Positions 3,661 to 64,000 of a stretch of DNA of 64,000 bases are shown here, piece by piece (positions within the stretch are counted from its first letter, which is position 1; each line of letters opens with the position of its first letter). A program made the position numbers and the translations under genes. Below the pieces are notes generated by a model that did no database searches, was not told the DNA's origin, and was given only the letters and a program-made list of their open reading frames with translations. The stretch comes from Escherichia coli. Its GTDB lineage: Bacteria; Pseudomonadota; Gammaproteobacteria; Enterobacterales; Enterobacteriaceae. The stretch lies in assembly GCF_030013205.1 (NCBI RefSeq), contig NZ_CP122648.1, one strand, 5' to 3'.

Positions 3661-4179
3661 ATGGTAGATAAACGCGAATCCTATACAAAAGAAGACCTTC
3701 TTGCCTCTGGTCGCGGTGAACTGTTTGGCGCTAAAGGTCCGCAATTGCCAGCACCGAACATGCTGATGATGGACCGTGTGGTCAAAATGACCGAAACGGG
3801 TGGTAACTTCGACAAAGGGTATGTTGAAGCAGAACTGGATATCAATCCGGATCTGTGGTTCTTCGGATGCCACTTCATTGGCGATCCGGTTATGCCGGGA
3901 TGCCTGGGCCTGGACGCAATGTGGCAGCTGGTAGGGTTCTACCTCGGCTGGCTGGGCGGCGAAGGTAAAGGCCGCGCGCTGGGCGTTGGCGAAGTGAAAT
4001 TCACCGGTCAGGTACTGCCGACAGCGAAAAAAGTGACCTACCGTATTCACTTTAAACGCATTGTTAACCGTCGTCTGATTATGGGCCTGGCGGATGGCGA
4101 AGTGCTGGTTGATGGTCGTTTGATCTATACCGCCAGCGACCTGAAAGTCGGTCTGTTCCAGGATACGTCTGCCTTCTGA
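3661..4179 (+). CDS. fabA: 3-hydroxydecanoyl-ACP dehydratase/isomerase FabA
   Basis: ORF track 3463..4179 trimmed to ATG at 3661 ([23 protein letters not shown]...); 172 aa; matches E. coli FabA. Confidence 0.95.
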
Positions 4180-15448: not shown

Positions 15449-15464
15449 TAGCAAACGTTTTCTT
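15449..15464 (-). promoter_or_regulatory. PurR-box-like operator upstream of pyrD (TAGCAAACGTTTTCTT)
   Basis: 16-bp sequence matching 14/16 of the recalled PUR box (ACGCAAACGTTTTCTT) about 90 bp upstream of pyrD start; pyrD is a known PurR regulon member. Confidence 0.45.
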
Positions 15465-15599
15465 ATTGCGCTTTTTTTATGCTTTTTTTGGCTTTTCTTC
15501 CTCAGATAAATCATTTCGACTCGCGGGCCACCTCTGTCAGACTGACCGAATTGTTATCAATGTTAACAAAACAAGAACAATTGGTTATAAGGAGAGAGT

Positions 15600-28608: not shown

Positions 28609-28636
28609 AAGCCCGCTTGAAAAGCGGGCTTTTTTA
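28609..28636. terminator. Terminator hairpin between convergent aspC and gloC (ycbL)
   Basis: 10-bp stem AAGCCCGCTT / AAGCGGGCTT with short loop followed by T6 on plus strand; fills the aspC-ycbL gap. Confidence 0.7.
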
Positions 28637-51911: not shown

Positions 51912-52676
51912 TTACTTACCAGAGGCGATACGATCACGGATGTGTTGCGCACGCTCTGTTGATGGTGGGTGAGAGTCAAACATGGACTGGGTACGACCGC
52001 CATCCAGGCTGGCCAATTTTTCAAAGCTGCCAACCAGCCCCTGGGTGCTGATGCCACGTTTCTTCAACAGTTCAAAGGAGAAATCATCTGCTTCGGACTC
52101 TTTATCGCGGGAGTATTTAGCATTGATCGCGCCTTCTGCGATATCACCTAATTGTGAGCGAGAAAGCTGGGAAGCCACACCGCTGGTAGCGGAAATCGCA
52201 TCACGTGCGGCAACGATCGCATAAGAAGCTTTCATTTCAGCCAGCGAGTGACCCAACGCGACGTGGCCCAGTTCATGACCCAGAACGCCTTCAATTTCGT
52301 TGTCGTTCATCATGTCCATCAGGCCACTGTAGACACGAACACAGCCGTTCGCCATCGCCCATGCGTTGACGTCGCTGGTCATATAAACCTTATAGTTGAC
52401 CGGCGTGCCATTAATATTGTTACCCAATGCTTTGGCGATTTTTGCCAGACGTTTACCGTACTTGCTGGATTTACTTGCGACTTGATTGCCGCTGTCCATT
52501 TCGGCACAGCCCTGATTGGCAATCGCTTTTGCATCAGCATCGCTTAACGTTGCTGCTTTATAGGCATTTAAACCTGAGCTGATAGCCATATTGGTATCAA
52601 TACCGTGGGTATTTTGACACCCTGTCAGTAATGCTGCAGAAGCCGCAATCGCCAGCAGTAATTTAGTATTCTTCAT
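51912..52676 (-). CDS. ycaL: M48-family zinc metalloprotease lipoprotein YcaL
   Basis: ORF track 51912..52700 trimmed to ATG at 52676 (MKNTKLLLAIAASAALLTGC lipobox); 254 aa; HELGH zinc motif (HELGHVALGH); matches E. coli YcaL. Confidence 0.92.
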   Translation of the reverse strand: MKNTKLLLAIAASAALLTGCQNTHGIDTNMAISSGLNAYKAATLSDADAKAIANQGCAEMDSGNQVASKSSKYGKRLAKIAKALGNNINGTPVNYKVYMTSDVNAWAMANGCVRVYSGLMDMMNDNEIEGVLGHELGHVALGHSLAEMKASYAIVAARDAISATSGVASQLSRSQLGDIAEGAINAKYSRDKESEADDFSFELLKKRGISTQGLVGSFEKLASLDGGRTQSMFDSHPPSTERAQHIRDRIASGK

Positions 52677-52774
52677 GTGAATCATCCGTTGATTAATCAT
52701 ATATAAATATTATGTATCAACAACTTACATTGACAAGCGACGCTACCATTAATCAAAATGACTCACAAGGTCCG

Positions 52775-53485
52775 AATAAATATCCTCCGGCATAGCCGGA
52801 GGTTTTTCAAATGCGCCTATAAGGCTCTCTTACCAGCCGCGCCCTAACAGGCGCACACGATCTGACATTTGCATCCAACTTCGTTACTTACGGCCCGTAA
52901 ACGGGCTGCCCGGATAGGGAATCGATAACTGCTCTCCCATTTTATCCTCTTCAAGCTGGTGCTTTATGTAATCCTGTATCTTCGCCGTGTTCTTACCCAC
53001 CGTATCGACGTAGTACCCTCTGCACCAGAACTCTCTGTTCCTGTATTTGAATTTCAAATCACCAAACTGCTCGTAAAGCATCAGACTGCTTTTCCCTTTC
53101 AGATATCCCATAAAGCCGGATACGCTCATTTTGGGCGGGATCTCCACAAGCATATGGATATGATCTGCACAGCATTCAGCTTCAAGAATCCGTACGCTTT
53201 TCCACTCACACAGCTTTCTCAAAATACTGCCTATTGCTCTACGCTTCTCTCTGTAGAACACTTGTCTTCGGTATTTTGGCGCAAAAACTATGTGATATTT
53301 ACAGTTCCATCGGGTGTGCGCTAAGCTCTTTTCGTTCCCCATTGGGACCCCCTTTTGATTTCTTGTTTGACACTTGCAGTTGCCAGACCGCAAGGTGTTT
53401 TAACAAATCAAAAGGGGTTTTAATAACTGGCTCAAAGCTGAAAGCTTTCCGGAACCCCCAGCCTAGCTGGGGGTTTTCTGTGCAC
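52775..53485 (-). mobile_element. IS200 insertion sequence (IS200/IS605 family), about 0.71 kb, tnpA only
   Basis: Contains a 152-aa Y1/HuH transposase ORF with the recalled hallmark features of IS200 (twin subterminal GC hairpins at 52784..52802 and 53455..53473, and an RBS-occluding inverted repeat in the tnpA leader). Boundaries estimated (+/- about 20 bp) from hairpin positions and the canonical ~707-bp length; not confirmed by alignment. Confidence 0.7.
52884..53342 (-). CDS. tnpA: IS200 transposase TnpA (Y1 HuH single-strand transposase)
   Basis: ORF track 52884..53393 trimmed to ATG at 53342 preceded by AAGGGGG RBS; protein MGNEKSLAHTRWNCKYHIVFAPKYRRQVFY...ADHIHMLVEIPP...YPGSPFTGRK matches the recalled IS200 TnpA (HuH motif HIH, catalytic Tyr region); 152 aa. 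Confidence 0.9.
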   Translation of the reverse strand: MGNEKSLAHTRWNCKYHIVFAPKYRRQVFYREKRRAIGSILRKLCEWKSVRILEAECCADHIHMLVEIPPKMSVSGFMGYLKGKSSLMLYEQFGDLKFKYRNREFWCRGYYVDTVGKNTAKIQDYIKHQLEEDKMGEQLSIPYPGSPFTGRK

Positions 53486-53555
53486 AAAAAAAACGCCGAC
53501 AATGTGCCGACGTTTTGATAAAGAAAGATTTGGCTATTTATTGCCCGTTGTTCAT

Positions 53556-54839
53556 TCAGGCTGCCTGGCTAATCCGCGCCAGCTGCTCGAAATAATCCGG
53601 AAATGTTTTGGCCGTACATTTGGGATCAAGAATCGTCACTGGTGTATCTGACAACGCCACCAGCGAGAAACACATCGCCATCCGGTGATCATTGTATGTC
53701 GCGATCTCGGCAAAGTTCAGTTTTTCCGGTGGAGTGATACGAATGTAATCGTGCCCCTCTTCTACTTCCGCACCAACTTTACGCAGTTCTGTTGCCATCG
53801 CAAACAGGCGATCGGTCTCTTTAACACGCCAGTTATAGATATTGCGCAGCGTGGTGGTGCCTTTTGCAAATAACGCCGCCGTGGCAATGGTCATCGCCGC
53901 ATCGGGAATATGGTTCATATCCATATCAATAGCGTTCAGTTCACCACGCGTGCAGGAAATATAATCGTCGCCCCAGCAAATAGTCGCGCCCATTTTTTCC
54001 AGCACATCAGCAAAGCGAATATCACCCTGCATACTGTTGCGTCCAATGCCGGTCACTTTTACAGTGCCGCCTCTGATTGCTGCTGCTGCCAGGAAGTAAG
54101 AAGCCGAAGATGCATCGCCTTCGACCAAATAAGTACCCGGAGACTGATAAGACTGCCCGCCTTTTACGACAAATTGTTGATAGTGCTGATTTTCAATTTC
54201 AACACCAAACGTCTTCATCAGATTGAGTGTGATGTCGATATAAGGTTTAGAAACCAGATCGCCTTTAATACGAATAACCGTATCTTCCGGCGCAAGAGGC
54301 GCAGTCATTAATAGTGCGGTGAGGAACTGGCTGGAAACGGAGCCATCAACGTCAACGTTGCCGCCAGTAAAGCTGCCCTGTAAACGCAATGGCGGATAAT
54401 TTTCTTGTTCCAGGTAAGTGATCTTCGCCCCGCCCAGGCGCAGCGCATCCACCAGATGACCAATCGGGCGCTCTTTCATACGCGGCTCACCAGTCAGCAC
54501 AATATCATTGCTACCCAGACAAAGAGCTGCCGCCAGCGGGCGCATTGCCGTTCCGGCGTTTCCGAGGAACAACTCCAGGGCACCTTCTGCGTGTAATGGA
54601 CCGCCGTTACCGATAATTTCGCAACGCGTACGATCAGCTGAAAGCGTATAGCTTACCCCTAACGCTGCTAATGCATTCAGCATATGGCGCACGTCATCGC
54701 TATCCAGCAGATTGGTTAATACTGTTTTGCCGTGTGCTAATGCCGCCAGCAATAAAGCGCGGTTAGAAACGCTCTTGGAACCGGGCAGATTAATAGTGCC
54801 ATCGACACGAGCGATGGGTTGTAACGTCAGGGATTCCAT
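53556..54839 (-). CDS. aroA: 3-phosphoshikimate 1-carboxyvinyltransferase (EPSP synthase)
   Basis: 427-aa [60 protein letters not shown]...; matches E. coli AroA. Confidence 0.97.
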
Positions 54840-63354: not shown

Positions 63355-63520
63355 TTCCGCTCTGCATAAATAATTCAGAGCTCTATTTCTAACGCCCTTA
63401 CAGCACAGCTTCCAAATGTATTACCCAAACCGCCAGTATATGTCCTGCGGCTTACGCGCATTTCTCGATTATGTAAAAACGGGTCAGATCTGCCAGAGTC
63501 AGCGTCACCGACCACAATAA

Positions 63521-64000
63521 TTATTTACCATTCGCTTTACGCGCCAGCAGCGGGAATATCAGTCCTAATCCTACCAACACAAACGGCGTTGCAACATTCA
63601 GCGCCAACTGGAAGGTCCACTCTGCAGTGAAGGCTTCCATTTTCGGGAAGATCCCCGTCAAACAGGCAAAGGCGGTAAAGGCAAAACACCAAATCCCGAC
63701 GGTCATTGCCAGAGGCTTATTACGAATAAAGACATATTCTGGTTTATATTTCTGCGCCAGGCGAACGACTGCAATAAATGCAACAAATACCCATAAATAA
63801 CGCAGCGGCATCACTACCGAGTTAAGATTCAACAGCCATTTATAGAGATTGTTCATATCACCAATGCCGAGAGTCGGTAGCATTATCAGGATCGCCACCA
63901 GCACCAGGGTCAGAAAATAGCCATTAACGGGCGTACCAGAAGCGTTGGTACGACATAAACTGGCTGGAATATATTTGCTGTCAGCATCGCCTAATAACAC
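63521..64000 (-). CDS. Amino-acid/polyamine-type permease, C-terminal part only (gene continues beyond the window edge)
   Basis: 159 in-window codons ending at stop 63521; strongly hydrophobic with several predicted TM segments (e.g. YFLTLVLVAILIMLPTLGIG, LWVFVAFIAVV, VGIWCFAFTAFACLTGIF, ATPFVLVGLGLIFPLL); by position and strand could be ycaM, but the sequence is not recognised with certainty. Confidence 0.6.
   Translation of the reverse strand: MLLGDADSKYIPASLCRTNASGTPVNGYFLTLVLVAILIMLPTLGIGDMNNLYKWLLNLNSVVMPLRYLWVFVAFIAVVRLAQKYKPEYVFIRNKPLAMTVGIWCFAFTAFACLTGIFPKMEAFTAEWTFQLALNVATPFVLVGLGLIFPLLARKANGK

Follow-up and report, generated by a model that had tools for sequence, protein, structure and literature searches.

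Among the systems closest to the locus described here, IS200 of Salmonella enterica is known in some detail at its left end (LE), where a terminator lies at nt 12-34, a weak promoter near nt 40 and a stem-loop of the tnpA 5'UTR at nt 69-138, and where an antisense RNA, art200, is also found (PMC4513863). The LE hairpin of this element is reported to be a bidirectional terminator, its tnpA promoter to be weak and translation of its tnpA to be repressed at several levels; in laboratory work IS200 is notorious for its inactivity (PMC4513863). IS1541 of Yersinia pestis and Yersinia pseudotuberculosis shares with the IS200C copy studied here the 26-nt left-end hairpin region, the right end (RE) GGAGGATATTTATT and a hairpin plus T-run before LE; it differs in its LE tip, which reads GTGCCCAG and not GTGCACAG, and in having many more copies per genome, some of them tandem. 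IS608 of Helicobacter pylori and ISDra2 of Deinococcus radiodurans have a homologous TnpA (2a6m and 2vhg, E ~4e-19; 2xm3, 2e-16) and subterminal hairpins, and they also insert 3' of a short sequence at LE, with no duplication and with the top strand as lagging-strand template (PMC5027513, PMC2806898). These two elements differ from IS200C in that they carry tnpB and use the plain targets TTAC or TTGAT, whereas IS200C is without tnpB and lies next to a TTNTT that nearly always follows a hairpin.

Group IIC introns home to intrinsic terminators, and their likeness to IS200C lies in this stem-loop-linked target. TnpA-REP (RAYT) is a relative of TnpA-IS200, and the transposase described below matches it weakly in NCBIfam (32 bits, below the cut-off of 80). 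For the REP-targeting ISPpu9, insertion in REPs is described (PMC8450116), a target choice that is likewise tied to an intergenic stem-loop. All three differ from IS200C in being other enzymes or domesticated ones.

The IS200C copy in the aroA-ycaL spacer

The window, by which we mean the whole 64-kb stretch of Escherichia coli DNA that was analysed, is the reverse complement of the ompA-to-pflA region of K-12, and the genes on its minus strand follow in the order serC, aroA, a 152-aa ORF, ycaL, cmk and rpsA. In K-12 MG1655 the aroA-ycaL spacer measures 168 bp. Alignment of K-12 with 13 occupied sites, those of the window and of 12 further loci, gives CGTCGGCACATTGTCGGCG-T8-CGGACC for the empty site and, for the occupied site in the window, GGCG-T8 followed by GTGCACAG...GGAGGATATTTATT and then CGGACC. 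The inserted block, absent from K-12 MG1655, comprises 711 bp (52775..53485), and its ends may shift by 0-2 nt because T residues flank both sides. The sequence-only reading had held that a block with these same coordinates is missing at this site in K-12, and had pointed to the K-12 alignment as the way to define its ends; the alignment confirmed the block to the base, at 711 bp and within that 0-2 nt ambiguity. There is no target-site duplication, as T8-CGGACC in K-12 becomes T8, the 711 bp and CGGACC in the window with no direct repeat, again within 0-2 nt of T ambiguity. The aroA terminator is identical in K-12, where its T8 runs straight into CGGACC, and the IS entered at the 3' end of this T8, which its left end adjoins. 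The features of the region are the following, in the direction of transcription of aroA.

53556..54839, minus strand: aroA, preceded by serC
53486..53516, minus strand: intrinsic terminator of aroA and target of the insertion, hairpin CGTCGGCACATTGTCGGCG plus T8 (terminator-like scan and fold)
52775..53485, minus strand: complete IS200C of 711 bp, LE at 53485 and RE at 52775 (comparison with the empty K-12 site)
53453..53475, minus strand: LE subterminal hairpin of 10 bp, IS nt 11-33, AACCCCCAGC-TAG-GCTGGGGGTT (DNA fold z = -4.9 to -5.4)
IS nt 38-52, counted from LE at 53485, minus strand: small hairpin (fold)
53349..53417, minus strand: tnpA 5'UTR stem-loop, IS nt 69-137, burying the Shine-Dalgarno AAGGGGG (fold)
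52884..53342, minus strand: tnpA, Y1 HUH transposase of 152 aa counted from ATG, with the HUH motif H61-I62-H63 and the catalytic Tyr Y125
52784..52802, minus strand: RE subterminal hairpin, 8 bp and GC-rich, IS nt 684-702, CCTCCGGC-TAT-GCCGGAGG, then ATATTTATT to the RE tip
52709..52736, minus strand: ycaL promoter-like site, TTGTCA-16 nt-CATAAT (10/12 in a consensus scan, identical to K-12)
51912..52676, minus strand: ycaL, followed by cmk and rpsA

That the block represents an intact IS200C, of the IS200 group of the IS200/IS605 family, with tnpA only, is near certain. An annotated IS200C copy located elsewhere in strain CFSAN018748 matches it with 100% identity over all 711 bp, and RefSeq calls the tnpA protein at the same aroA-ycaL site WP_000526135.1, "IS200C family transposase". 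The tnpA product matches Pfam PF01797 (Y1_Tnp; E=3.8e-38, 130.7 bits against a cut-off of 23) and the NCBIfam equivalog NF033573 (transpos_IS200; 147.7 bits against a cut-off of 55), and it aligns to the solved IS200-type transposases 2ec2, 2f4f, 2a6m and 2vhg with E=4e-23 to 4e-19. In these alignments D60-H61-I62-H63 is in register with the DHIH of 2ec2 and 2f4f, and Y125 with the Tyr of the C-terminal helix (helix D); a Y125F change makes the TnpA of Salmonella IS200 catalytically dead (PMC4513863). We looked for damage to tnpA in the window copy, in the form of a frameshift or of loss of HUH or Tyr, and saw none. There is no tnpB, tnpA being the single substantial ORF and the only one with a family match in the 711-bp element; this trait sets the IS200 group apart from the IS605 and IS1341 groups. 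The analysis bears out the assignment made from the letters alone, an IS200-family element of about 0.7 kb carrying tnpA and nothing else, and oriented like aroA and ycaL; all three genes are on the minus strand.

The anatomy of the element is that of Salmonella enterica IS200 in its size of about 0.7 kb, its single 152-aa Y1 HUH tnpA with Y125, its LE hairpin, its 5'UTR stem-loop that hides the Shine-Dalgarno, its match to STnc490, and its want of inverted repeats and target duplication. On direct reading, neither of the ends, GTGCACAG and ATATTTATT, is an inverted copy of the other, and no terminal inverted repeats were found. Salmonella IS200 is quoted at 707 bp and the present copy measures 711 bp, a difference that the 0-2 nt of T ambiguity explains in part. 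The LE hairpin, the presumed binding site of TnpA, is also the first helix of the Rfam STnc490 match. The tnpA ATG is at IS nt 144, shortly after the buried AAGGGGG. At the other end, the RE hairpin was found by the terminator-like scan (DNA fold z = -3.65), and a T-rich tail of 9 nt follows it and finishes in TTATT.

Rfam RF01405 (STnc490) matches 53352..53475 on the minus strand over its full length (1-124), with 146.4 bits against a gathering score of 56 and E=3.5e-31. The literature has STnc490/art200 as an RNA of 90 nt that runs antisense to the tnpA 5'UTR (PMC4513863). The match in the window lies on the tnpA-sense strand, where it spans the LE terminator hairpin, and not on the plus strand, so the Rfam model seems, judging from the match itself, either to represent the sense 5'UTR region or to have been built on the opposite strand. 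A plus-strand counterpart can be placed by homology only:

53334..53423, plus strand: putative feature, with coordinates transferred from the description in PMC4513863

Hits to RmaA (27.9 bits), MIR827 (21.9) and STnc490 on the plus strand (20.6) were far below their gathering scores and were dismissed.

Whole-window BLAST against positions 949,000-1,020,300 of K-12 (71 kb) showed that, over the aligned part, the 711-bp block is the sole window DNA longer than 75 bp without a K-12 counterpart; the final 633 bp of the window lie beyond the aligned K-12 stretch. The window is also 99.997% identical to the swine isolate K_EC180, with one 1-nt indel between them, and the RefSeq annotation of that isolate lists no other transposase in the 64 kb. 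The claim that this is the only mobile element in the window is supported.

Several further differences from K-12 were seen in the window. At 15463..15537, between pyrD and ssuE, the window is without 7,093 bp of K-12 (997,575..1,004,667), which comprise the whole elfADCG-ycbUVF fimbrial operon, and has 75 unaligned bp instead. In the gloC-aspC spacer (about 28620..28630), K-12 has some 162 extra bp with REP/BIME-like palindromes (GCCGGATGCGGC..., GCCTGATAAGCG...GCATCAGGC), and this extra DNA sits inside what is a simple terminator hairpin in the window, AAAAAAGCCCGCTTTTCAAGCGGGCTT. At 63368..64000, downstream of pflA, there is a 111-bp annotated pseudogene fragment (63410..63520) and then ycaM; ycaK and ycaN, which lie between pflA and ycaM in K-12, appear to be absent in the window lineage, the K-12 stretch compared having ended before ycaM.

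Occupancy and history of the site in E. coli

A query of 951 bp, made up of the IS and its flanks, was compared with 5,426 complete E. coli genomes, and a site was scored as occupied when one co-linear match ran across the whole query. The flanks matched in all but one of the genomes, and the aroA-ycaL site is occupied by IS200 in 52 of them, always in the same orientation; the RefSeq annotation at the occupied sites names the tnpA "IS200C family transposase". Both the identity of the element and its site are thus publicly annotated. IS200C-like DNA is present in 3,096 genomes, 2,063 of which have at least 80% of the full length. The number of IS200 places per genome ranges from 0 to about 35 overall; in the genomes with IS200C-like DNA it lies between 1 and 35 (median 1). 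Such variation, together with occupancy in 52/5,426 genomes, agrees with the proposal of the sequence-only reading that the insertion is a strain marker that varies between isolates. Genomes that match the query at 99.5-100% identity are those of pig ETEC/O139:H1 isolates, each having some 19-33 places; the window belongs to this swine ETEC/O139 lineage, with about 19-23 copies.

To follow the history of the site, the IS core (709 bp) and 2.8 kb of flanks of the 12 other occupied sites were compared separately with the window. One of the occupied loci, in strain P31_YH1_02.21 (NZ_CP085063.1), was left out of the IS and flank distance matrices, as it has a second IS200C in the serC-aroA spacer; this second copy was located at 3824..3950 of the stretch retrieved, and the two copies bracket aroA. 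Two variants of the IS occur at aroA-ycaL, separated by 28-32 differences (about 4%) and encoding different TnpA proteins, that of the variant not found in the window (loci L010, L011 and L014) being WP_000502112/WP_001550737. In their flanks these three loci are the closest to the window, with 13 differences (0.46%), and in the IS they show 28-30 differences. The reverse is seen for L008 and L012, where the IS differs from that of the window by 1 nt in 709 and the flanks by 76 differences of about 2,800 (about 2.7%). The histories of the IS and of the flanks are incongruent, and the simplest reading is that at least two independent insertions took place at the same nucleotide position.

The shared orientation at 52/52 occupied sites, and junctions that are essentially the same, would also be accounted for if the IS had entered aroA-ycaL only once, long ago, had then been passed on by vertical descent or by homologous recombination, and had since left most lineages through precise excision; the site would then be no recurrent hotspot. 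Elements of the IS200/IS605 family excise precisely and their losses leave no scar (PMC5027513), and recombination is frequent in E. coli. Co-inheritance from one event, however, predicts the opposite of what the comparison gave, a flank difference of 0.46% with an IS difference of about 4% and one of about 2.7% with 1 nt; in addition, junctions of the same kind recur at other terminators, for example in the cgtA-dacB spacer of UK pig and Russian chicken isolates. We therefore regard a single origin as improbable. Gene conversion between IS copies, or recombination of the flanks, could in principle also produce the incongruence. Within the reading of repeated insertion, the sequences suggest that there were probably more than two independent events. 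The lengths of the T-runs, which vary from 7 to 8 T to the left of the IS and from 2 to 4 T to its right, were set aside as evidence for separate insertions, slippage or assembly error being as likely a cause.

Terminators as insertion targets

Left ends were read at nine more E. coli IS200C junctions, which fall at 8 loci, and in all of them a GC hairpin and a T-run directly precede GTGCACAG. Each lies after the end of a co-oriented gene: cgtA (twice), osmE, glnS, nagE, pqqU, uhpT, an island gene and, in P31_YH1_02.21, aroA. In the cgtA-dacB spacer, the IS200C copies of a UK pig and a Russian chicken isolate both sit at the cgtA terminator. The nagE and glnS terminators are both occupied, in different strains, as seen in two stretches around glnS.

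The exact 26-nt pattern of the left-end hairpin was then searched for in species-representative genomes, which gave at least 120 stretches; the sources among the matches listed include Y. pestis (IS1541), Vibrio ruber, Brenneria, Pluralibacter and MAGs. Together with the E. coli junctions, the matches listed gave 128 unique left-end junctions, about half of them from one Y. pestis genome and several from MAGs, and in the other species the LE tip was assumed to lie 8 nt upstream of the 26-nt pattern. A strict test for terminator-like sequence (perfect stem of at least 5 bp, three or more of them GC, with a loop of 3-8 nt and a T-rich tail) was passed by 99 of the 128 unique junctions among the matches listed, against 217 of 20,000 random positions at the same loci (about 1%). 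The 29 junctions of this set that failed have, for the most part, visibly imperfect hairpins. The mean fold of the 45 nt upstream is -18.4 kcal/mol for the junctions among the matches listed and -8.2 kcal/mol (sd 4.4) for random positions. Only this difference in energy was kept from the folds, the hairpin-to-insertion distance on MFE folds being uninformative because pairing between A-tract and T-tract lengthens the stems.

The junctions also have a sequence component. In the 128 listed, T is present before LE at position -1 in 115, at -2 in 126, at -4 in 109 and at -5 in 123 (85-98%), the TT at -1/-2 being formally assignable to the element itself. Insertion is orientation-specific, with LE immediately 3' of TTNTT. 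A hairpin accompanies this motif in at least 77% of the junctions among the matches listed, compared with 9.9% of T-rich TTNTT generally and 18.5% of those outside long ORFs. Terminator-linked targeting by this type of IS200 is thus well supported. An excess of terminator-like sequences immediately upstream of ISs, strongest in IS200/IS605, has been reported in a preprint (10.1101/2025.07.22.666184); in the literature searched we found no explicit statement that IS200 or IS1541 targets terminators, although older papers on these elements may have it.

Two kinds of process may underlie the association. Selection surely contributes to it, since copies that lie past terminators are harmless and have their tnpA shielded from read-through. 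Selection alone, acting after random insertion into T-rich DNA by a TnpA blind to the hairpin, would fit the IS608 paradigm, in which a tetranucleotide is all the target needed (PMC5027513), as well as the T preference at -1, -2, -4 and -5 and the view of the preprint cited above that upstream terminators limit transposase expression and so aid persistence (10.1101/2025.07.22.666184). It accounts poorly for a junction fixed to the nucleotide, in one orientation only and with the hairpin 5' of LE, and for the excess of hairpins at the junctions over the 18.5% of TTNTT outside long ORFs. It has further difficulty with the cases in which LE comes straight after the RE hairpin of another copy, which selection for neutrality hardly explains. 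On this balance we judge selection as the sole cause to be rather unlikely.

The cases just mentioned come from Y. pestis NCTC5923, where five of the stretches contain tandem IS1541 with LE directly after RE (GGAGGATATTTATT followed by GTGCCCAG, or with one more T between them); in L079 and L081 the left-end matches are about 710 bp apart, which fits head-to-tail dimers. The position of LE directly after the RE of another copy implies that the element's own RE is itself a target. The exact 26-nt left-end region of enterobacterial IS200 was also met in MAGs assigned to Oxalobacter, Mailhella/Desulfovibrio, Bacillota, Peptococcaceae, Saccharibacteria and Elusimicrobiaceae, as a rule at the ends of contigs. 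Either this type of IS200 has spread horizontally over a very wide range, it would seem, or the contigs are mis-binned or chimeric.

Proposed route of insertion and its consequences

As in the rest of the family, IS200C most likely moves by a single-strand "peel and paste" route. By analogy with IS608 and ISDra2, the Y1 HUH TnpA would bind the subterminal hairpins of the top strand and excise this strand as a circle (PMC5027513, PMC2806898). The circle would then join the lagging-strand template where this is single-stranded, entering just 3' of a short T-rich target and leaving the target unduplicated. At the present locus this target would be the T8 after the aroA terminator hairpin, with the element pointing the same way as aroA.

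The plus strand of the window has a GC skew of -0.036, negative in 7 of 8 bins, which makes the minus strand, the top strand of the element, the G-rich one and hence the lagging-strand template. K-12 carries aroA at 0.96 Mb on its plus strand, a position in the clockwise replichore. The strand assignment in the window is that of the family bias, in which the top strand is on the lagging-strand template (PMC5027513).

A GC-rich hairpin with a T-run that ends in TTNTT resembles the element's own RE, which is a hairpin followed by ATATTTATT. On single-stranded DNA, the terminator hairpin may accordingly look to the transposase like an RE-type structure, and the A-rich stretches AGAAAA, before the LE stem, and GAAAAA, before the RE stem, may serve as IS608-like guides that pair with TTNTT and TTATT. 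Direct recognition of the hairpin by TnpA is the weakest step of this scheme. Generalised to the group, it would mean that IS200-group transposases choose their targets by structure, a terminator stem-loop plus T-tract on the single-stranded lagging-strand template mimicking RE. It would set them apart from the IS608/ISDra2 model, where a bare tetra- or pentanucleotide suffices. We advance this generalisation tentatively, and give it somewhat less than an even chance.

The ycaL promoter-like site is 38 bp downstream of the RE tip, and those 38 bp are unchanged as well. The sequence-only reading had suggested that the element could insulate ycaL or alter its transcription; we find no support for this in the sequence, the aroA terminator and the ycaL promoter-like site being intact and a hairpin being present at each end of the IS. 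Lying between an intact terminator and an intact promoter-like site, the insertion is probably neutral and mainly a marker of lineage. The element might regulate ycaL or aroA by insulating them, by tnpA transcripts that read through, or by moving control sites away from their upstream positions: DNA upstream of about -75 from the predicted ycaL start has been pushed 711 bp away, and a co-oriented tnpA transcript that escaped the RE hairpin would enter ycaL. Against such an effect, the core promoter-like site with the 38 bp before it and the aroA terminator are unchanged, RE carries its 8-bp GC-rich hairpin and then a T-rich tail, tnpA is reported to be weakly transcribed and its translation to be repressed at several levels (PMC4513863), and the diverse lineages with an occupied site show no compensatory change in the ycaL promoter region. 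A regulatory role is for these reasons improbable.

Taken as a whole, we consider it very probable that an intact IS200C moved through single-stranded DNA into the T8 of the aroA terminator, that it did so as part of a general targeting habit which has hit this position at least twice, and that the result is a probably neutral lineage marker. Beyond what the sequence-only reading had offered, this adds one thing, namely that the position at the aroA terminator is a specific and recurrently used target. The IS200C copy at aroA-ycaL is usable for typing the swine ETEC/O139 lineage, with the warning that the site has been occupied independently in other lineages and that the presence of the IS alone is no proof of common descent. 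Transposition assays have long been wanting for IS200, and the aroA terminator also provides a concrete target for them. Landing to within about a nucleotide after terminator hairpins helps to explain why IS200-type elements rarely do harm and why they persist. Should targeting prove to be guided by structure, any strong terminator could serve as a landing site, and that of aroA would be a hotspot used repeatedly.
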